Shown here: positions 3,169 through 62,777 of the stretch, in pieces
How positions within the stretch are numbered: position 1 is the first letter of the stretch
Layout: each line of letters starts with the position of its first letter
Program-made: the position numbers and the translations under genes
Source of the DNA: an uncultured Gammaproteobacteria bacterium
GTDB taxonomy: Bacteria > Patescibacteriota > Patescibacteriia > Magasanikbacterales > JBBTQS01
Reading direction: 5' to 3'
NCBI GenBank assembly: GCA_964627525.1
Contig: CAZVIA010000001.1
Location: forward strand, 72,384 to 136,383
DNA length: 64,000 bases
Notes under the pieces: generated by a model
Told to the model about the DNA's origin: nothing
The model's database searches: none
Seen by the model: only the letters and a program-made list of their open reading frames with translations

Positions 3169-4674
3169 ATGAGTTATCGCACATACAAATTGAGCGCACT
3201 TTTTAGTGTATTTTTGTGTTTATTATTTTTAATGCCTTTTGCTACGCCAGCAAATGCAAATACAGGAGTTGGTTTTGTGCCAAGTTCTGGAGTTTGGTTT
3301 TCGCAAGATGTTTTTTATGAAAACGAAACTGTAAAATTATATACAGTTGTTGTGAACAATACATACAAATCACTTTCTGGAATAATTGGTTTTTATGATA
3401 ATGATCAATTAATTGTGGAGACAGTTTTTTCAAATATAAGGTTTGAAGAAGCAAAACAAATTTCAGCAACTTGGGAGCCACAATCTGGTGATCATGATTT
3501 AGTTGCAAAATTTACTCAAGTGACTGGAACTAATGATGATGGTTCAAAAGAAAATTTTGACGGTGCGACTTTTACTGGAGGTGCTTCTGAAGTTAAAACT
3601 TCTCGTTTTGTAGATAAAGATACTGATGGCGATAAGGTCGGAAATGAAGTTGATGATGACGATGACAACGATGGTTTGAGTGATGCAGAAGAAGAAACTT
3701 TAGGTTCTGATCCTGAAAAAACTGATACTGATGGTGATAGTTTGGATGATAAAAAAGAAGTTGATCGTGGTACTGATCCAACTCGTGCTGATACTGATGG
3801 TGATGGTGTTGATGATGATAAGGATGTGTTCCCAACAAACAAAGGAGAGTGGAATGATATTGATGGTGACGGGCAAGGGGATAATTCAGATTCAGATGAT
3901 GATAATGATGGTTTGTCTGATGATGATGAAAAAAATTATGGTTCAGATCCATATAAAAAAGATACTGATGCAGATGGTTTAAATGATAAAGAAGAAATTG
4001 ATTTTAAATCAGATCCAACTAAACCTGATACTGATGCAGATGGTTTAACAGATTATGAAGAAAGAGATTTTGGAACTGATCCTGAAAAAACTGATACTGA
4101 TGGTGATGGTTTAAGTGATTTTACTGAAAAAGAATTAGGTACTGATGCAACAATGGTTGATACTGATGAAGATACTTTGGCTGATGGTGATGAAGTTAAA
4201 GCTGGTACAAGTCCTTTGTTTCAAGATTCAGATGCTGATGAGGTAAATGATAATGTCGATGCTTTTCCAATGAATAAAGCTGAAACTGCTGACACAGATG
4301 AAGATGGTGTTGGAGATAATGCTGATGAAGATGATGATAATGATGGTTTAAATGATGTGCAGGAATTGGAGATGGGGTTAGATCCTTTGAAAGCAGATAC
4401 TGATGATGATACTTTGAGCGACAAAGATGAGATTGAAGTTACTTTGACAGATCCTTTGAAAGCAGATACTGATGAAGATGGTGTTAGTGATGGGGTGGAA
4501 GTTCAGGAGGGTACTGATCCAAATTCAGCTGATTCAGTTCCAGATTTGCCAGATGAAGAAGGTGAAGGTGGGTCAATGTCAATGCAAAAAGTTTTGACTT
4601 TTCTAGCAGTTGTTTCTTCTTTGTGTGTGTTATTTTTTGCAGGACTATATGTGTTCAAGCGCAAAGAATCTTAG
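3169..4674 (+). CDS. cell-surface acidic Ca-binding repeat protein (thrombospondin type-3-like DxDxDGxxD repeats) with C-terminal TM anchor
   Basis: Signal peptide MSYRTYKLSALFSVFLCLLFLMPFATPANA. About 20 DTDGDGLSD / DTDADGLND repeats. C-terminal hydrophobic anchor VLTFLAVVSSLCVLFFAGLYVFKRK. Confidence 0.7.
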   Translation: MSYRTYKLSALFSVFLCLLFLMPFATPANANTGVGFVPSSGVWFSQDVFYENETVKLYTVVVNNTYKSLSGIIGFYDNDQLIVETVFSNIRFEEAKQISATWEPQSGDHDLVAKFTQVTGTNDDGSKENFDGATFTGGASEVKTSRFVDKDTDGDKVGNEVDDDDDNDGLSDAEEETLGSDPEKTDTDGDSLDDKKEVDRGTDPTRADTDGDGVDDDKDVFPTNKGEWNDIDGDGQGDNSDSDDDNDGLSDDDEKNYGSDPYKKDTDADGLNDKEEIDFKSDPTKPDTDADGLTDYEERDFGTDPEKTDTDGDGLSDFTEKELGTDATMVDTDEDTLADGDEVKAGTSPLFQDSDADEVNDNVDAFPMNKAETADTDEDGVGDNADEDDDNDGLNDVQELEMGLDPLKADTDDDTLSDKDEIEVTLTDPLKADTDEDGVSDGVEVQEGTDPNSADSVPDLPDEEGEGGSMSMQKVLTFLAVVSSLCVLFFAGLYVFKRKES

Positions 4675-6651: not shown

Positions 6652-6734
6652 AATTTTCGCTAAATTTAGCCAAAAAATAAGCACTATAAATAAACTTGAC
6701 TTATAATTTTTTTTCTGATAAACTTATTTCAAAT

Positions 6735-6840
6735 GCCACAGACAGCAGGCTGTTTCATAAGTCCTGCCGAGGTAAAAGACTATTAATTAGGTCGACTTTT
6801 ACTAGTTTCCTGTGGCGAATGTGTCACAGTTTTTTGTTTA
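6735..6840 (+). promoter_or_regulatory. putative ribosomal protein L10 (rplJ) autoregulatory leader
   Basis: Nested inverted repeats gccacag..ctgtggc, gcagg..cctgc and gtaaaag..cttttac lie immediately upstream of rplJ. This position is typical for the L10(L12)4 binding leader. Confidence 0.4.
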
Positions 6841-6843
6841 AAT

Positions 6844-7371
6844 ATGCCAAAAACAAGACAACAAAAAGAAAAAGATGTAGCAGATTTGACTGATGTTATC
6901 AAACAAAGCAAAGCTGCTGTTTTTGCATCATTTAAAAACATCACAGTTGGCGACGCGCAAACATTGCGTAGAAGCTGTCGTGAAGTAGATGTAAAATATT
7001 TAGTTGCAAAAAAGACTTTAATGAACCGTGCATTTAAAAATGCTGGTTATGATGATGTGGACACTTCTCCTTTTGAAGGTAACATTGGTGTTGCTTTTGG
7101 AATGGGTGATGAGGTTGCATCAGCAAAAACATTAGATACATTTGCCAAAGACCATGAGGGTTTCACTATTTTGGGTGGAATTTTAGAAGGACGTTATATT
7201 AAAGCTGATCAAGTGATTAGTTTGGCTAAATTGCCAAGTCGCGATGAATTACTTGCCAAGTTGGTAGGTTCATTAGCTGCTCCAATGTCTGGTTTTGTAA
7301 ATGTATTAGCAGGTGTACCGCGTAATTTTGTACAGGTTTTATCTGCAATAAAAGATGCTAAAGAAGCATAA
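6844..7371 (+). CDS. rplJ: 50S ribosomal protein L10
   Basis: L10-like sequence and size, directly upstream of rplL. Confidence 0.9.
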
Positions 7372-25294: not shown

Positions 25295-25388
25295 AACTTA
25301 AAAAACATATTATTTGTTCCTATCCCGTGCTAATTCTAGCACTCGACCCTCAACGGGTAAGTGTCACAAATAATATGTTTTTTAAGTT
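25295..25388. mobile_element. 94-bp MITE-like element or integration scar: perfect 23-bp terminal inverted repeats around a 48-nt structured core
   Basis: aacttaaaaaacatattatttgt (25295-25317) and acaaataatatgttttttaagtt (25366-25388) are exact reverse complements. The core contains nested hairpins cccgt..acggg and gtgcta..tagcac. Sits 3 nt after tRNA-Tyr. Confidence 0.45.
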
Positions 25389-25503: not shown

Positions 25504-26049
25504 ATGAAAAAGGCAACCTACTTGTTGTTGGCAGGGCTAGCGCTCGTTGCGCTGGTCTGGCCAATCTTGGCAACAGCATCTCAACCGTCAGACGACGCGG
25601 GAGAGCAGTTGTGCCAGGTTTGGCCGGGGATTTCGTTCTGCATGTCAGCACCCGACGAGGTCGTGGTTGCTGGCAGTGATCTGTTGTTCACGTTCGATGA
25701 TCAGAGCGCGCCGCAGATCCTGATGCAGGACAAGAACGGGTTGTTCATGGTGACGGGGCTGATCCAGGTTCCGTATGACCAGTTGGCAGTGCTGATGAGC
25801 CAGAAACTCGTCGGACTGCTGATCTGGGAAGATGGGCAAGGTCGTATTCTCATGCAGGCGCCCGACGGGCTCTTCGTGTGGTGCGACAAAGCAGAAGGCA
25901 CGTGCTTTATCATGGAGAAGAAGCCGGCGGAGAGCGGCGACTTCATCATGCAGAGCAGCTTGATCATCGGACCGTGTACTGGGAATCTCATTCTGGTGAA
26001 CAAGGCTTGGGGTGGTCCGATCGTGCCAATCAACATCGTGTTCTGTTAG
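25504..26049 (+). CDS. secreted hypothetical protein, horizontally acquired (about 57% GC against a 33% GC genome)
   Basis: Signal peptide MKKATYLLLAGLALVALVWPILATA. SD aaaggaggg precedes the ATG. Strongly GC-rich codon usage unlike neighbours. Confidence 0.7.
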   Translation: MKKATYLLLAGLALVALVWPILATASQPSDDAGEQLCQVWPGISFCMSAPDEVVVAGSDLLFTFDDQSAPQILMQDKNGLFMVTGLIQVPYDQLAVLMSQKLVGLLIWEDGQGRILMQAPDGLFVWCDKAEGTCFIMEKKPAESGDFIMQSSLIIGPCTGNLILVNKAWGGPIVPINIVFC

Positions 26050-26075
26050 TACTGCACAGACAGTGCGAAGCAGAA

Positions 26076-26126
26076 AAACACGCGAGAGCGTCTAGGTAAC
26101 ACTAGGCGCTTCTCTGTTTTTTTAAA
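26076..26126 (+). terminator. intrinsic terminator
   Basis: GC hairpin cgcgagagcg...cgcttctctg followed by T7. Confidence 0.5.
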
Positions 26127-26194
26127 TTAAATTTGATACATGGTTTAAAAAGTTATAAAGTAAGAATGTAAGAAATTATTACTTATATAAAAAT

Positions 26195-26440
26195 ATGAAT
26201 GTGATTTTAAAAGCTACTACAAAAGGGCAAATAACTTTGCCTGCAAAATGGAGAAGGTCTTTTAATACAGATCAGTATCTTGTAACAAGTAAGGGTGGAA
26301 TGCTTGAGGTGCGCCCTGTTGATCTTAAATCAGCTATAAATACAAAAGATGAATATACTGTTTTTGATGCAATCCGAGATAATAAAGGTAAAGGTATAAA
26401 AGCAAAAGATCTTGTAAAAGTTTTGAAAAAAATGACTTAA
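26195..26440 (+). CDS. AbrB/MazE/SpoVT-family swapped-hairpin DNA-binding protein (antitoxin-like), AT-rich
   Basis: KGQITLPAKWRRSFN is typical of AbrB/MazE N-termini. 81 aa. No cognate toxin adjacent. Confidence 0.5.
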   Translation: MNVILKATTKGQITLPAKWRRSFNTDQYLVTSKGGMLEVRPVDLKSAINTKDEYTVFDAIRDNKGKGIKAKDLVKVLKKMT

Positions 26441-26608
26441 GCTTTTATGGATCAAATACAAAAATTGTTTAAGATAGTATAAAATTAAGAAATGAGCAGA
26501 TTTATAAATAATATTTTTTAAATTAAAAAAGACCTCACTTCGTGTGGGTCTTTTTTGTTGTTTAAGTTTCTGACTCATCTTGAGTCAGTCGGCCGAAATG
26601 GCCTGTCC

Positions 26609-27226
26609 TTAGTGGATCGCCTCGTTGTCGTCCATGCCAGCTCCTGTCACGTTGCAGTGCACCCGAATGGCGCTCCGCGGAATCGTGACACAGAACTCAC
26701 CGTGTTCTGAGGAGGTCGAAACCTCTTCAGTGGTGGTCAACACAATGTGCCTTCCCACCTCACAGTTCGCCTTGACAAGGACTTGCTCGATCCACTCCAC
26801 CAGGTTGTCCGTGGCAGTACGCTCACCCAAGTCCATTGCTTCGACCTCGGGCATGCACTGTTCGAACACCACGATCGTCGGGATGCGCACCGTCTTGGTG
26901 AATATCACGCCGCCACTCTTCTTCGAGCTTGGGGTGGGCTTGGATTCCTTGGTCGTCAGCGTCTTGCCAGCAACCCAGGTTTCCTCCTTGTCTTGGATCT
27001 CCACCTCGCTGCCGGTTTGGCGAGCGAAGCGCAGAACCTCCAGGAGGGTGGGATCGCCGCGCCCGACGTCCACGGTCTCCTCGCCAGCGACCGGAGTCGC
27101 TGTCCGAGTCGGACCGCCTGCAGGTTGAGCTGTCGCCGTCGTGGCACAGCCTGGGTTGAGGGCGATAATAGCTATGACCACCGCAAGGGCGATCGAAGAA
27201 AAAATCAGTTGCACTATTGCCTTCAT
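26609..27226 (-). CDS. hypothetical lipoprotein, horizontally acquired (about 58% GC)
   Basis: Start MKAIVQLIFSSIALAVVIAIIALNPGCATT (signal plus lipobox-like NPGC). It is preceded by SD caaggaga and by a perfect TTGACA-N17-TATAGT promoter. Confidence 0.65.
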   Translation of the reverse strand: MKAIVQLIFSSIALAVVIAIIALNPGCATTATAQPAGGPTRTATPVAGEETVDVGRGDPTLLEVLRFARQTGSEVEIQDKEETWVAGKTLTTKESKPTPSSKKSGGVIFTKTVRIPTIVVFEQCMPEVEAMDLGERTATDNLVEWIEQVLVKANCEVGRHIVLTTTEEVSTSSEHGEFCVTIPRSAIRVHCNVTGAGMDDNEAIH

Positions 27227-27350
27227 TGAAGGGTGTCTCCTTGTGGTTTGATTTACGGTCGTTTGTGCAGTTTTAGAGAACCCTACTGATGATCTGTTCT
27301 GCGTCAGCTCATCATGCAGTACTCTCCAAAAAGTACATATTAAACAGATA

Positions 27351-27379
27351 ACTATAGCATATTTTAGCGATTTTGTCAA
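27351..27379 (-). promoter_or_regulatory. sigma70 promoter TTGACA-N17-TATAGT driving the GC-rich lipoprotein gene
   Basis: Reverse complement of 27351-27379 reads ttgaca aaatcgctaaaatatgc tatagt. Near-identical (26/29) to the promoter at 60899-60927. Confidence 0.6.
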
Positions 27380-27456
27380 CCCTCACTGGCTTTGCCAGCT
27401 CGGGTTGTCAACTGCGTCTTTAATTTTTGCCTAAAATAAGCTAAAATCATAACACA

Positions 27457-27485
27457 TTGACTACTTAGGTTTTTCAGTGTACAAT
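27457..27485 (+). promoter_or_regulatory. sigma70 promoter TTGACT-N17-TACAAT for tRNA-Thr/rpmG
   Basis: ttgact at 27457, a 17-nt spacer, tacaat at 27480, 13 nt before the tRNA. Confidence 0.6.
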
Positions 27486-27498
27486 ACCCTCGTAATCT

Positions 27499-27572
27499 GC
27501 CACCTTAGCTCAGCTGGTTAGAGCGACGGTTTTGTAAACCGTAGGTCCAGGGTTCGATTCCCTGAGGTGGCT
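27499..27572 (+). tRNA. tRNA-Thr (anticodon TGT)
   Basis: Acceptor gccacct/aggtggc, D arm gctc..gagc, anticodon stem acggt/accgt with loop ttTGTaa, T arm cagggttcgattccctg. Confidence 0.8.
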
Positions 27573-27596
27573 CTGAAAAAATTGAATAAAAATTTT

Positions 27597-30375: not shown

Positions 30376-30408
30376 CTCTAATTTTGCTTAAAATAAGCGA
30401 AATTAGAG
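30376..30408. promoter_or_regulatory. 33-bp near-perfect palindrome (candidate operator) in the divergent intergenic region
   Basis: ctctaattt tgcttaaaataagcg aaattagag: perfect 9-bp arms with a near-palindromic spacer. Shares TTTTGCYTAAAATAAGC.AAA with 27424-27447. Confidence 0.4.
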
Positions 30409-30525
30409 AAGATAGCACCTTATCAAAAATCACCAAGTTTGTCAAGTCTAATGTGCTATTTCAATGGGTTTATTAGCTTTTAATTTACTTGACTTTTTGT
30501 TATAATATGCATACAATCAATACCT

Positions 30526-32280
30526 ATGATAAAAAAAACTTGGGAAAATATAAAGAAATATAAAAAAACAAGCATTGTTGGGTTAATAGTTTTAATATTA
30601 ATTTTAATGTCAGTGTTTAGTGGTGGAGAAGAAATAGTGCGCGAAACAATTTATGTTGAAAATAATTACATAATTCAAGAGGTGAGTGTAACTGGAAATG
30701 TAAAAGCAGCCGATGAAGTTAGTTTAGGTTTTGAACAATCTGGAAAAGTTGGCAAAGTAAATGTAGAAGTTGGGCAAGTTGTAAAGGAGCGAGATATTTT
30801 AGCTACTTTAGTTGGTACTGGCTCTTATGCAAGTTTGCAACAAGCTCAAGCAAGTGCTCAAAGTTCTCAAGCTTTGGTTGATCAGTATAAGCAGGCGTTA
30901 ACAAAGCAAGAAACTGATTTAAAGGAATTAAAATCTGGTCCAAGAATTGAATCAATAGTTGTTGCTCAAACAACAGTTTCAAATGCTGAAAAATCTGCAA
31001 AACAAGCACAAGATAATTATGATGCAATTTTGGCAAAAGCTGATGATGATTTAGTGCAAGTTTATGATGATATAGATGATGTTTTACATACAGCTTATGC
31101 AAAAGTTAATGACGCAGTGCGTCGTTTGACAGATCCTTTGTTTACTAAAGATACATCTGTAAATCCACAACTTACTTTTACTACTTCAAATTCAAGTGCA
31201 AAAAGTCTTGCTCAACAAATGAGACATAAGGCAGAGATAGCTTTGGTTGAATTAGCAACAATTACTTCTAATATTCCAACTGATGAACTTGGAAAAATAA
31301 ATGCACTTACAAGTGCACAAGTAGCATTAAACACAACACGTGATTTTTTTAATGCTTTAACAACTGTAATGAATAGTGCGTCTGGTTTTGATGCAGCAAC
31401 TTTAGCAACTTATCAAAATAATGTTAGTACTGGAATGAATACAACTGTTACTCAAACAACAGCCATATTAGCTCAAATACAATTAGTGAGCACTCAAAAA
31501 AATACAAATCAAAATAGCATTACAACTGCGCAAGTAAGTTTAACAACAGCTGGAAATACTTTATCTGCTGCTCAAGAAAATTTGAATTTGGTTTTAGCTG
31601 GAGCAACTGCTGGTGAGATTCAAGCTCAAGAAGCTTTAGTTGAGCAAGCTCGTGCAAATTTTAGATCTCAACAAGCTTTGCTTTCAAGTGCATGGGCTTC
31701 AATTACTCAAGCGCAGGCAGTTTATAATCAAACAATAATTCGTGCGCCGTTTACTGGAATAATTACAAAACAAGATTTGCAAGTTGGGGAGATTGTATCA
31801 GCACAAACAGAACAAATTTCAATGATTTCAGATGTTGAATTTGAAATTGAGGCATTTGTTCCAGAAGTTGATATCGCAAAAATTTCTGTAGATGATGAAG
31901 CTCTGGTGACTTTAGATGCTTATGGTGTTGATCAGGAATTTATTGCAAAAGTTGTATCAGTAGATCCTGCAGAAACTGTTATTGAGGGTTTGTCTACTTA
32001 TCGTGTGCGTTTGCGTTTTGCAGAACAAGATGAACGAATTAAATCTGGTATGACTGCGAATGTAGATATTTCAACTGATAGACGTGATGATGTTTTGGCA
32101 GTACCACAGCGTGCATTAGTTCGTAAGGATGGTAAAAGATTTATTAGGGTTGTTGATGGTGCAAAAACACATAAGGAAGTTGAGATTGAAACTGGTTTGC
32201 GCGGTTCAGATGGTTTGATAGAAATTATAAGTGGTTTAATTGAAGGTGATGAGATTGTAACTTATATAGAAGAAAAATAA
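30526..32280 (+). CDS. efflux-pump periplasmic adaptor (HlyD/MacA-type membrane fusion protein)
   Basis: N-terminal TM, long Q/A-rich coiled coil, IIRAPFTGIITK...VGEIV lipoyl/beta-barrel motifs. First gene of an adaptor-ATPase-permease operon. Confidence 0.75.
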   Translation: MIKKTWENIKKYKKTSIVGLIVLILILMSVFSGGEEIVRETIYVENNYIIQEVSVTGNVKAADEVSLGFEQSGKVGKVNVEVGQVVKERDILATLVGTGSYASLQQAQASAQSSQALVDQYKQALTKQETDLKELKSGPRIESIVVAQTTVSNAEKSAKQAQDNYDAILAKADDDLVQVYDDIDDVLHTAYAKVNDAVRRLTDPLFTKDTSVNPQLTFTTSNSSAKSLAQQMRHKAEIALVELATITSNIPTDELGKINALTSAQVALNTTRDFFNALTTVMNSASGFDAATLATYQNNVSTGMNTTVTQTTAILAQIQLVSTQKNTNQNSITTAQVSLTTAGNTLSAAQENLNLVLAGATAGEIQAQEALVEQARANFRSQQALLSSAWASITQAQAVYNQTIIRAPFTGIITKQDLQVGEIVSAQTEQISMISDVEFEIEAFVPEVDIAKISVDDEALVTLDAYGVDQEFIAKVVSVDPAETVIEGLSTYRVRLRFAEQDERIKSGMTANVDISTDRRDDVLAVPQRALVRKDGKRFIRVVDGAKTHKEVEIETGLRGSDGLIEIISGLIEGDEIVTYIEEK

Positions 32281-43978: not shown

Positions 43979-44057
43979 AAATTTCTCACTAAATTAGATA
44001 AAATTCAAAATACTTGCATTGATTGATGCAAGTATTTTGTTAGGGTTATGTGAGTAT

Positions 44058-44086
44058 TGACACATTTCCCGCCTCTTGATACAATC
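44058..44086 (+). promoter_or_regulatory. sigma70 promoter TTGACA-N17-TACAAT of the hrcA-grpE-dnaK operon
   Basis: ttgaca at 44058, a 17-nt spacer catttcccgcctcttga, then tacaat. Confidence 0.7.
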
Positions 44087-44089
44087 TCA

Positions 44090-44116
44090 TTAGCACTCGC
44101 TTGACGAGAGTGCTAA
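44090..44116 (+). promoter_or_regulatory. CIRCE operator (HrcA binding site), perfect consensus
   Basis: TTAGCACTC-gcttgacga-GAGTGCTAA matches TTAGCACTC-N9-GAGTGCTAA exactly. It lies 3 nt after the -10. Confidence 0.9.
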
Positions 44117-49493: not shown

Positions 49494-49534
49494 AAAAGTC
49501 GACCCCAGCTGATGTTAGTCAACTGGGGTCTTTT
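49494..49534. terminator. bidirectional intrinsic terminator
   Basis: gaccccag ctgatgttagtcaa ctggggtc flanked by an A-run and a T-run. Confidence 0.6.
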
Positions 49535-49535
49535 G

Positions 49536-49662
49536 TCACGCTCAGGTGTTGAACCTGAAACTTACGTTCGCGGAACCTGGGTTCGCGTAACAGTAGAACT
49601 GCGTGTTCGTGACGTTGGGTTGGGACAAAGGTCGATTCTCTAGCCAAGTTGTATTATGGCGG
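49536..49662 (-). ncRNA. GC-rich structured segment in the rnhA 3' region (candidate sRNA or structured 3' UTR)
   Basis: About 55% GC. Hairpins gtcacg..cgtgac and cgcggaac..gttcgcg. A T-arm-like tcagg-ttcaaca-cctga on the minus strand. It lies between the rnhA stop and the terminator. Could not be folded as a tRNA. Confidence 0.25.
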
Positions 49663-49703
49663 GTTTGAAGAGTTTTGTCAAATTTTTTTGTTGAGATTTA
49701 TTT

Positions 49704-59676: not shown

Positions 59677-59738
59677 AAAAAAAGACCCCCCGCACTATGT
59701 TACAATTCGTGCGTAAGGGCCTTGTTTTGGGGGGTCTT
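59677..59738. terminator. strong intrinsic terminator (terminates minus-strand ncRNA-2; also lies 3' of the plus-strand GT2 gene)
   Basis: A7, then gaagacccccc ...38-nt loop... ggggggtcttc. On the minus strand it reads stem then U7. Confidence 0.6.
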
Positions 59739-60209
59739 CAGACGCCGCCATGTCCCCCCGGTTCAGTACTCCAGGATTAGAAGGACTTGCATCTCTTCTG
59801 CCTTCCTTTGGCTTTTGAGGTCAGCCACTCCAGAGAGCCATCGCGTTTTTTTTGCGGTTGTTACAAAGGTGCGATAACTGTTTTTGACAATTTCGTATCG
59901 TGCTGTCGTCAGCAGTCAACTTAGTTTCTTAAAACTCGCTTTGTTTATTCTGCTGTTTTTACACTGCAGGTTGTTTTGCGAGTTACACATGCTTTCATGC
60001 TTTCATAGTCCTTGGAGGTTCAGATTAACATCCTCCCCAAGCTACACCGCCTTGTGTGTTTAGGCGCTGAGGTGCTTCCACCTAACTGATTCAGTCAGGC
60101 TTTAGTAGCCGTGCGAGCAGAACCATTTCTCGCGTACCTCCTTTGCTGGCTTTTGTACGCATTACCAGCGTTTTACTGCTCGTGGTTCTTTTTGTACAAG
60201 TAAGCAGTA
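59677..60209 (-). ncRNA. candidate large structured noncoding RNA, unit 2 (about 530 nt, about 50% GC), family unknown
   Basis: Defined by a perfect promoter (60216-60244) and terminator (59677-59738). No ORF longer than 24 codons in the transcribed sense. Many GC-rich hairpins. The 5' end folds immediately (tactgct..agcagta). Confidence 0.5.
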
Positions 60210-60215
60210 AATGGT

Positions 60216-60244
60216 ATTGTAACACATGTGCGAGATTCTGTCAA
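60216..60244 (-). promoter_or_regulatory. sigma70 promoter TTGACA-N17-TACAAT (minus strand) for ncRNA unit 2
   Basis: Reverse complement reads ttgaca gaatctcgcacatgtgt tacaat. Confidence 0.6.
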
Positions 60245-60284
60245 GCTCGTGCCTACGGCACTCGCTTGTCAACTGCGTCGCTAC

Positions 60285-60320: not shown

Positions 60321-60350
60321 ACTCCTTGTTGTCAAACCCTTAGTTTAAAC

Positions 60351-60892
60351 AAAAAAAGAAGACCCGTACCGTAATGGTTCGTGTCTTCTACAGGAGGATC
60401 AAGTTTTGACAGAAACTATGGTAGTTAACCTCCAGAGCAGGTGTTCCAATTCTGCTCCTGCTAATGATGGGGTGCCGAAGCCCACCTTTGCTTCCACTAC
60501 CAGGAGGGTTCCTATTATATGGCCCAACCCATCCAACCTTCTGCTTTGTCGCATCAAGTTGGTCCTTACTCCACACTTGTCATCGTGTGTAAGGCATAAG
60601 AGCCGTTTTTTAGGGTATTTTAGTTCTCAGGCGCGACCCCGAGATCTTGGTACCTCTCTAAACCTCACCAACTATGGGACGCGACTCCCTTTCTGCTGCA
60701 CTGTTGGCGTACAGGTTCTAGCGCTTAGAATTGGATCCAGGCCTTTCAGCGGGACCCAGTTCAATGCGTTCTGGTGCGTAGTTAGAGCACCTCTTTATTA
60801 TCTCCTTTTTGCCGTTATTCGTTTGTCGCCCTTTGAGCACACAGACCCTCTTCAAAAGTTGTCAGAGTCTTGGCTTGCAAAAGACCAAACGA
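60351..60892 (-). ncRNA. candidate large structured noncoding RNA, unit 1 (about 540 nt, about 50% GC), family unknown
   Basis: Defined by a perfect promoter (60899-60927) and an intrinsic terminator (hairpin 60358-60388 plus U7 on the minus strand). The only sense ORF has a GTG start, 62 codons and a low-complexity product. The antisense 181-aa ORF has a non-protein-like composition. Confidence 0.5.
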
Positions 60893-60898
60893 AGACAT

Positions 60899-60927
60899 AC
60901 TATAGCATGTTTGAGAGATTTTGTCAA
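60899..60927 (-). promoter_or_regulatory. sigma70 promoter TTGACA-N17-TATAGT (minus strand) for ncRNA unit 1
   Basis: Reverse complement reads ttgaca aaatctctcaaacatgc tatagt. 26/29 identical to the promoter at 27351-27379. Confidence 0.6.
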
Positions 60928-62345: not shown

Positions 62346-62777
62346 ATGTTTATTGGAGAATTCCAACACAGCATAGATAGTAAAGGCAGGTTAGCAGTTC
62401 CTGGTAAATTCCGCGCCCAAGTAAAAGCAGGTGCAGTTGTAACTAGGGGACTAGATAACTGTTTGTTTCTATACACAAAAAAAGAATGGCAAGTTCTTGC
62501 AAAAAAACTCGCTACATTACCTCTAAGTAAATCTAATACTCGTGCATTCGCCCGACTCATGCTTGCTGGCGCAATGGATGTAAAGTTAGATTCACAAGGA
62601 AGAATTCTTCTTCCAGAATATCTGCGAAAGTTCGCAGGGCTGAAAAAAAATGCTGTTGTTGCAGGTTTGTATGACCGCCTAGAAATCTGGGATAAGCAAC
62701 AATGGGAAAAATATAAAGCAGGGACTGAAAAAGATTCAGTAAGCATTGCCGAGCAAATAGGAGAATTAGGAATTTAG
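62346..62777 (+). CDS. mraZ: division/cell-wall cluster transcriptional regulator MraZ
   Basis: FIGEFQHSIDSKGRLAVP ... LDSQGRILLP: duplicated SpoVT/AbrB-like halves. Confidence 0.9.
   Translation: MFIGEFQHSIDSKGRLAVPGKFRAQVKAGAVVTRGLDNCLFLYTKKEWQVLAKKLATLPLSKSNTRAFARLMLAGAMDVKLDSQGRILLPEYLRKFAGLKKNAVVAGLYDRLEIWDKQQWEKYKAGTEKDSVSIAEQIGELGI

Follow-up and report, generated by a model that had tools for sequence, protein, structure and literature searches.

Look-alike promoters of a GC-rich lipoprotein gene and two RNA units in a Patescibacteria-like genome are probably independent near-optimal housekeeping promoters

The window analysed here, a stretch of 64,000 nucleotides of contig CAZVIA010000001.1, holds a GC-rich gene for a lipoprotein-like protein and, about 33 kb away, two unannotated non-coding RNA (ncRNA) units, and the promoters of all three look very much alike. 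The original prediction took these promoters, together with a shared 14-mer and a third shared motif, as a sign that a foreign island around the lipoprotein gene is connected to a 644-aa gene and the ncRNA locus by a common regulator or a common mobile origin. We think that the look-alike promoters are probably independent, near-optimal housekeeping promoters without a common mobile origin. The genes, RNA units and promoters concerned are the following, the genes being taken from the list of open reading frames (ORFs):

26609..27229, minus strand: GC-rich lipoprotein-like gene, 206 aa
27230..27344, minus strand: lipoprotein mRNA leader of ~115 nt, counted from the predicted transcription start and ending in AAGGAG, 8 nt, ATG
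27351..27379, minus strand: lipoprotein promoter, reverse complement TTGACAAAATCGCTAAAATATGCTATAGT, with TTGACA, 17 bp and TATAGT, and TG at -15/-14
60345..60892, minus strand: ncRNA unit 1, ~548 nt with terminator, without a sizeable ORF on the minus strand; fold z-score -3.9
60899..60927, minus strand: promoter of unit 1, reverse complement TTGACAAAATCTCTCAAACATGCTATAGT, with TTGACA, 17 bp, TATAGT and TG
59680..60209, minus strand: ncRNA unit 2, ~530 nt with terminator, without a sizeable ORF; fold z-score -2.9
60216..60244, minus strand: promoter of unit 2, TTGACA gaatctcgcacatgtgt TACAAT, 17 bp, with TG
49495-49646, minus strand: third unannotated small RNA, ~150 nt with terminator, without a sizeable ORF; fold z-score -4.2
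49653..49681, minus strand: promoter of the small RNA, TTGACA AAACTCTTCAAACCCGC CATAAT, with a spacer resembling that of unit 1

When the window is re-read, all sequences named in the original prediction are found where it had placed them, the match between the lipoprotein and unit 1 promoters again comes out at 26/29 positions, and the unit 2 promoter (60244-60216) does have a spacer variant of its own. The three promoters have a hexamer score of 11/12 each, with 6/6 at the -35 and 5/6 at the -10, and the spacer form at issue in the island and ncRNA promoters is AAATCNCT...ATGCTATAGT. The four bases at the extended -10 are TATG in the lipoprotein promoter, CATG in that of unit 1, where the first T is missing, and TGTG in that of unit 2, with T-R-T-G complete in the first and the last. 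Each promoter heads either a unit with a hairpin and T-run terminator or a gene with AAGGAG, 8 nt and ATG, and the spacers have an A/T tract on either side of a middle with a little GC, and the TG region last. A spacer organised in four regions, with two A/T tracts around a middle that is weakly enriched in GC and then a G-rich extended -10 region, has been described across bacteria, as a pattern shaped by selection in which the extended -10 of Firmicutes takes the form TRTG (PMC12641261). A literature search on promoters of the Candidate Phyla Radiation (CPR) gave no promoter study. We propose that a housekeeping polymerase of the sigma-70/sigmaA type would read three independent near-optimal promoters, each with a perfect TTGACA, a 17-bp spacer, an extended -10 (TG, mostly T-R-T-G) and TAtAgT or TAcAAT, and that strong promoters would converge on one long consensus, spacer included. 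They would then drive strongly expressed, self-contained GC-rich units with terminators of their own, i.e. the two RNAs of ~530-550 nt, the small RNA of ~150 nt and the lipoprotein mRNA.

The recurrence of the same promoter elsewhere supports this reading. A degenerate pattern that fits all three promoters, with 19 fixed and 3 two-fold positions, matched 93 stretches in metagenomes, 70-77 of them non-redundant, and the positions that it leaves free are far from random: spacer positions 1, 9 and 11 are A in 83%, 71% and 89% of the matches (background A 31%), T predominates at position 13 (83%) and purines at position 14 (74%). The consensus of these matches is TTGACAAAATCNCNAAAATRTGYTATAAT, and the lipoprotein promoter agrees with its fully specified form at 27/29 positions. 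An unrelated metagenome contig with a locus GC of 55% (L018) has a promoter identical to that of the lipoprotein gene over all 29 positions, five other loci (L016, L021, L037, L038, L085) reach 28/29, and 27 of the 77 distinct matches have at least 26/29 and are thus no further off than unit 1. The loci with a matching promoter have no flanking DNA in common with the window, and no homologs of the island proteins. Promoter-like sites taken from the same loci independently of the pattern, 120 in all, have T-R-T-G at 72/81/85/69% and an A/T-rich proximal spacer.

The host would be an uncultured CPR/Patescibacteria-like bacterium with a small genome of low GC content (34% in the window contig), to judge from the macA-like protein of the window, whose named homologs are all CPR/Patescibacteria. 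Identical DNA is present in JGI sample 3300009374, in the ENA SUTE22-1/SCRA20-1 assemblies and in Logan SRR8062331, with SAMN10231901/03 also among the source samples, and the strain variants compared for footprinting (L001-L005, L101-L106 and L111-L114) are 99.8-100% identical to the window, with all motifs unchanged and a scaffolding gap of Ns as their sole indel. The nearest relative found is the metagenome-assembled genome (MAG) GCA_964554065, to which the contigs L099 and L110 belong; compared with the window, identity is 66% for the GT2 protein and 54% for the macA-like protein, and with housekeeping proteins at 54-66% it is a family-level relative, the collections searched having none at the level of species or genus. 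Of the genome under study 79 kb were examined, that is the window extended at both ends.

From these 79 kb and the relatives L099, L110 and L107 we took 22 sites of the TG type, which give 231 pairs. Their majority consensus is TTGACAAAATATCCAAATTATGCTATAAT, and 7/22 have G at position 5 of the -10. In a column-independent position-weight model, built on those of the 120 pattern-independent sites that bear TG, pairs are identical at 18.7/29 positions on average, and the probability of at least 26/29 is 3.3e-4 per pair, or ~0.07 over the 231 pairs, and about one such pair would be expected per genome if it has ~100 promoters of this kind, a number that is our own assumption. The promoter of the small RNA at 49653..49681 has 21/29 positions in common with that of unit 1. 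The similarity of the lipoprotein and unit 1 loci is confined to the promoter and ends at its borders, and therefore fits convergence on function and not the copying of a segment. The match of 26/29 arises because the lipoprotein promoter is almost on the consensus and the unit 1 promoter three to four steps away from it.

Upstream of two of the promoters lies a second kind of similarity, which does not have the same explanation. Its parts are:

27405..27418, minus strand: 14-mer GACGCAGTTGACAA, copy 1, ending 25 nt upstream of the lipoprotein -35
27386..27398, minus strand: 5-bp GC hairpin CTGGC-aaa-GCCAG, between the 14-mer and the lipoprotein -35
60266..60279, minus strand: 14-mer GACGCAGTTGACAA, copy 2, ending 21 nt upstream of the unit 2 -35
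60249..60261, minus strand: 5-bp GC hairpin GTGCC-gta-GGCAC, between the 14-mer and the unit 2 -35

The 14-mer had been noted before, and both copies are exact and in the same orientation; they are the only ones in the 79 kb. The order of the module is the same in both, namely 14-mer, CGAG, a GC hairpin (perfect 5-bp stem, 3-nt loop), GAG and the -35, and the two hairpins differ at two positions, on one arm as on the other. When the 70-nt upstream regions of 15 promoters are shuffled, an exact 14-mer comes to be shared in 12/3000 cases (family-wise p 0.004), and with an aligned TTGACA taken as given in both regions the chance of eight more matching bases is 1.6e-4. That both linkers should hold a hairpin has a joint probability of ~0.002 in shuffles, while the sequence similarity of the linkers alone is not significant (p = 0.21). 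In addition, a single GC-rich promoter-terminator unit of 400 nt in the relative L243 holds three near-copies of the 14-mer: TTGACAAACTGCGTC belongs to the spacer of its promoter, GACGCGTTGACA covers codons 4-8 and GACGCAGTTGGCA comes right before the hairpin of the terminator; at least two matches with at most one edit in the 82 kb of relatives were seen in 4/400 shuffles.

All of this could be explained by a specific regulator, whether an activator, a repressor or an insulator protein, that acts on both the lipoprotein gene and unit 2 through a GACGCAGTTGACAA-CGAG-GC palindrome-GAG module. The restriction of the exact 14-mer to two places at similar distances from a -35, its p-values, the paired changes in the hairpins and the cluster in L243 all point in that direction. 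However, distances of 25 and 21 nt put the two copies on different helical faces, two copies are few, the linkers taken alone are no more similar than chance allows, and the module is missing at the orthologous lipoprotein promoter of L110 and at the units adjoining the GT2 gene in L099, as is any near-copy of the 14-mer in L244, which has the ortholog of the L243 unit. We therefore regard such a regulator as unlikely, although not as far-fetched. Among the few DNA-binding proteins of the genome, candidates for such a factor would be the AbrB/MazE-like protein (26195-26440), MraZ (62346-62777) and HrcA, to which the ArsR/HTH_5-type proteins seen in relatives could be added. The suggestion of a common regulator is trivially right for a shared housekeeping sigma factor, and it may hold in a more specific sense for the lipoprotein gene and unit 2, whose promoters share a statistically real module; the difference of 4 bp in spacing and the absence of the module from the closest relative found speak against that. 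The module is best described as real but unexplained, with a site for a lineage-specific protein and the remnant of a local duplication as the options.

A number of simpler roles for the 14-mer were tried and rejected. It is not the -35 of a second promoter, as there is no usable -10 at 16-18 bp on either strand, and promoters do not in general have a tandem TTGACA upstream (4/134, with 4.4 expected). It has no inverted partner nearby and is not the end of a mobile element, nor are the two copies the direct repeats of a 33-kb element, since the interval contains housekeeping genes such as dnaJ, recJ and a likely dnaK. Uptake sequences would be expected in far more copies than two in 79 kb, and the 14-mer was rejected as a DNA-uptake sequence on that count.

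The island itself is the region between tRNA-Tyr and tRNA-Thr, with a GC content of 0.42-0.45 compared to ~0.34, and its supposed foreign nature does not hold for the lipoprotein gene. The gene order of L110 is tRNA-Tyr, GC-rich lipoprotein on the minus strand, tRNA-Thr(UGU), L33, NUDIX and tRNA-Trp, which is the order of the window. The lipoprotein of the window has no Pfam match, and a word-based protein search matched it only to itself; the lipobox protein in the same slot of L110 nevertheless aligns with it over the full length (28% identity, E 2e-8) with the cysteines conserved. Its promoter is TTGACAAAATATCAAAAGTATGATATAGT, 24/29 compared to that of the window, and in the aligned starts of the two leaders TATAGTT, TGTT, GTACTT and TGAnGAGCTG are conserved. 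The L110 ortholog is equally GC-rich, in a genome of ~43% GC as read from the sequence, so that a high GC content is a lasting feature of this gene. Taken together, the synteny and the orthology of the gene, its GC content and its TATAGT promoter mean that they are ancestral at the tRNA-Tyr/tRNA-Thr site, so that the lipoprotein gene and its promoter are, as far as comparison of the two loci can tell, old and no recent foreign insertion. The 181-aa GC-rich ORF and the AbrB/MazE-like ORF are absent from L110 and may be lineage-specific.

The common mobile origin that was first proposed would demand a duplicated or mobile promoter cassette that reached the ncRNA locus as well as the island. In its favour, the modules of the lipoprotein gene and unit 2 can be aligned at 46/68 positions from the 14-mer to the -10, the lipoprotein and unit 1 promoters agree at 26/29 and the inter-tRNA region is GC-rich. 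But no flanking direct repeats or terminal inverted repeats were found in the self-comparison of the window and the near-match search, no integrase or other mobility domain was found by Pfam in the three ORFs tested between the tRNAs (25504-27229), where the sole signal was a weak AbrB/MazE-like match below the curated cutoff, and none of 120 matches to the 14-mer in viral contigs has a promoter after it. The likeness also does not reach beyond the promoter, unrelated organisms have the identical 29-mer, and the ortholog in L110 is syntenic and just as GC-rich, hence old. A cassette was already disfavoured by this evidence and seems to us the least probable of the explanations considered, and we see no support for a common mobile origin.

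The only repeat in the self-comparison near tRNA-Tyr is a perfect 23-bp inverted repeat (25295-25317 / 25366-25388), which comes directly after the tRNA and encloses a small GC-richer insert. At the same place in L110 (~3326-3455) there is an inverted repeat with equal arm length and another sequence, which suggests a conserved long hairpin that would be co-transcribed with tRNA-Tyr.

The three RNA units are GC-richer than their surroundings and fold better than shuffled sequence. Rfam has no match to any of them or to L099, and nhmmer searches with the two larger units, with the small RNA at 49495-49646 and with the leader of the lipoprotein mRNA gave no homologs in any of the fetched loci. 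Units 1 and 2 are not paralogs by sequence comparison, and unit 2 aligns poorly with the L099 unit adjoining the GT2 gene, except for a short block, GCGNCTARACACACAAG. GC-rich orphan genes and small RNA-like units are found in relatives and in further CPR-like contigs too (L099 2563-3307 and 5395-7130, L243 2140-2560, L038 6810-7211), each with a TTGACA-17-TAnnnT promoter, nearly all with TG and most with a terminator of their own. In L099 three or four such units follow the GT2 gene, at the place that units 1 and 2 occupy in the window. GC-rich units headed by a consensus promoter thus recur in the group, and are no mark of recent transfer. A perfect 17-mer, TGCGACAAAGCAGAAGG, is common to the 181-aa ORF (25882-25898, plus strand) and unit 1 (60537-60553, minus strand) in the same sense; over the whole window a repeat like this is no more than chance would give (E = 0.21).

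The third motif stands apart from the other two, and was proposed to be shared between the site upstream of tRNA-Thr and a 33-bp palindrome. Its copies and their surroundings are:

27425..27445, plus strand: third motif TTTTGCYTAAAATAAGCNAAA, copy form TTTTGCCTAAAATAAGCTAAA, with its centre ~57 nt upstream of the predicted tRNA-Thr start
27457..27485, plus strand: tRNA-Thr(UGU)-L33-NUDIX promoter, TTGACT, 17 bp, TACAAT, divergent from the lipoprotein promoter, with a predicted transcription start near 27492
27499-27573, plus strand: tRNA-Thr(UGU), downstream of this promoter
30376..30408: 33-bp palindrome with 15-bp arms, in the divergent region between a 644-aa gene and the macA-like gene
30382-30402: second copy of TTTTGCYTAAAATAAGCNAAA, inside the 33-bp palindrome
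6655..6675: family copy TTTCGCTAAATTTAGCCAAAA, ending 21 nt upstream of the rplJ -35 (6697)
6718-6845: L10 leader, 3' of the rplJ promoter
41578: third-motif match just before a start codon

The two copies of TTTTGCYTAAAATAAGCNAAA at 27425-27445 and 30382-30402 are real, but as a link between the island and other accessory loci the motif fails, as it also precedes the rplJ promoter and promoters of further CPR-like contigs. It has four matches in the window when up to 3 mismatches are allowed, 0.21 being expected. The palindromic core is GCYTAAAWTWAGC, and the family can be written GCTAAAWTTAGC, with two invariant GC dinucleotides in A/T-rich sequence of alternating T- and A-tracts (TTTT-GC-TAAA/TTTA-GC-AAAA). 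At 27425 the core (27428-27441) ends 15 nt upstream of the tRNA-Thr -35, and at 6655 (core 6658-6669) the centre is at about -67 from the predicted start. The same core lies 11-18 nt upstream of the -35, with centres at -53 to -59, in L006, L030/L089, L037, L082 and L088, loci that share nothing else with this genome. Overall the centres are at about -53 to -67 from predicted starts and the distance to the -35 varies between 11 and 25 nt. In 697 kb of CPR-like loci the family has 15 strand-sites compared to 1.4 +/- 1.3 in composition-preserving shuffles, a count that is somewhat inflated by palindromes scoring on both strands and by one orthologous locus pair. A literature search gave no paper that describes the family. 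The most likely role of the third motif would be that of an UP-element-like or class-I-type upstream site of housekeeping promoters, judging from its position. A shorter form, TAGCYAA, was rejected as a general upstream motif, being present at only 4-6 of 69 promoters.

The 33-bp palindrome lies just downstream of a weak candidate promoter of the 644-aa gene (TTGACA, 17 bp, TAAGGT, minus strand), and this placement suggests a 5' stem-loop or an operator. The 644-aa protein is an orphan that matched only itself in a word-based search, and in relatives the gene upstream of macA is a pilin or a PPIase gene. The macA-like gene of the window appears to be nearly leaderless (30489-30528), with a -10 TACAAT that ends at 30517 and an ATG at 30526.

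It could of course be argued that all three shared elements are coincidences that come from inspecting an AT-rich window. In an all-against-all self-comparison of the window the match of the two 29-nt promoters has E = 0.21, the 40 best matches listed do not include the third motif, and near matches to the 14-mer occur at chance frequency (7, with 5.1 expected). When the tests are restricted to the proper context the picture is another: there the 14-mer has p = 0.004, and the third motif is in excess in the window and its family about tenfold enriched in independent loci. The promoters moreover have, from their sequence, every appearance of functional sites in front of units with terminators. 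That nothing but chance is involved seems very improbable to us, if marginally less so than a mobile cassette.

The reading of the promoters as independently near-optimal has its own difficulties, and these should be weighed together. The lipoprotein and unit 1 promoters are the most similar of all 231 pairs, at 26 positions with 24 for the next best and a mean of ~16, and the pair ranked second, at 24, is the lipoprotein promoter and its own ortholog in L110, below a supposedly unrelated promoter. The TC-C part of the spacer is not generally preferred, C being found there in only 14% and 20% of the pattern-independent promoters, and some residual spacer similarity thus goes beyond a general promoter model. 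The metagenome consensus is partly circular, as the query fixed 19 positions. The promoter architecture does not account for the 14-mer and hairpin, two copies of the third motif (30382 and 41578) lie elsewhere than an UP element would, and the MAG of L099 and L110 is labelled "uncultured Gammaproteobacteria" (CAZKMQ010000014.1, GCA_964554065.1), which conflicts with a CPR host. The label looks doubtful because the named homologs of the macA-like protein are all CPR/Patescibacteria, and the lipoprotein/unit 1 pair is, in our opinion, the tail of a distribution that is centred by the long consensus.

If the reading of independent near-optimal promoters is accepted, near-identical promoters in this small-genome lineage are no evidence of shared mobile ancestry, because strong promoters that converge on a long consensus, including the spacer, make near-identity uninformative on descent. 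Nor does GC-rich mean foreign here, where the GC-rich lipoprotein gene is old and syntenic. The 29-nt consensus could be useful in the annotation of CPR genomes, as a flag for units that are likely to be highly expressed, among them the three unannotated RNAs of the window. Further leads are the candidate upstream palindrome family and the 14-mer module, which could lead to a regulator. One can go further and hypothesize that the 14-mer and hairpin are the operator of a hitherto undescribed, lineage-specific DNA-binding factor that couples the surface lipoprotein to the ~530-nt RNA, and that GCTAAAWTTAGC is a CPR-wide control site of housekeeping genes with a conserved regulator. This is speculative, and somewhat less likely still than a regulator of the module alone, but if true, a fast-evolving GC-rich lipoprotein would be coupled to an RNA of ~530 nt of no known family, and the palindrome would be among the first cis-regulatory motifs defined for these uncultured bacteria. 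For the most part, we believe, the locus displays ordinary promoter biology in an unusual organism, plus one small unexplained cis element.

Compared to known systems, the region resembles tRNA-adjacent islands and elements of the MITE (miniature inverted-repeat transposable element) or Correia type in having a GC-rich segment between two tRNAs and a strong promoter at more than one locus. It differs from them in the lack of an integrase, flanking repeats and terminal inverted repeats, in having only two copies of the 14-mer in 79 kb with no inverted partner nearby, and in that the lipoprotein gene is kept at the same site in a family-level relative.

The third motif is in some respects similar to the CIRCE/HrcA operator (controlling inverted repeat of chaperone expression, TTAGCACTC-N9-GAGTGCTAA), as it is a palindrome with TTAGC/GCTAA half-sites close to a promoter, but the order of the half-sites is reversed and the spacing another. 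It was accordingly rejected as a CIRCE, the sole match in the window being at 44090-44116, with none at 27425 or 30382. That match is a perfect CIRCE on the plus strand, immediately after a promoter at 44057-44085, and the operon behind it contains dnaJ (by Pfam) and likely dnaK (by position and size). The copies of the third motif at 27425 and 6655, and those in other contigs, are closer to UP elements in being A/T-rich and in their place ~53-67 nt upstream of predicted starts, in the window those of translation genes (tRNA-Thr with L33, and rplJ). The motif is unlike UP elements in having a defined palindromic core with GC dinucleotides, more like the site of a dimeric protein, in its variable distance to the -35 (11 to 25 nt) and in that two copies in the window, at 30382 and 41578, have no recognisable promoter downstream.

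The promoters themselves are closest to the extended -10 promoters of sigma-70/sigmaA, with which they share TTGACA, 17 bp, TG at -15/-14, a TATAAT-like -10 and the four-part spacer. What sets them apart is a CPR-like host and the G at position 5 of the -10 (TATAGT, TACAGT), which 7 of the 22 sites have.

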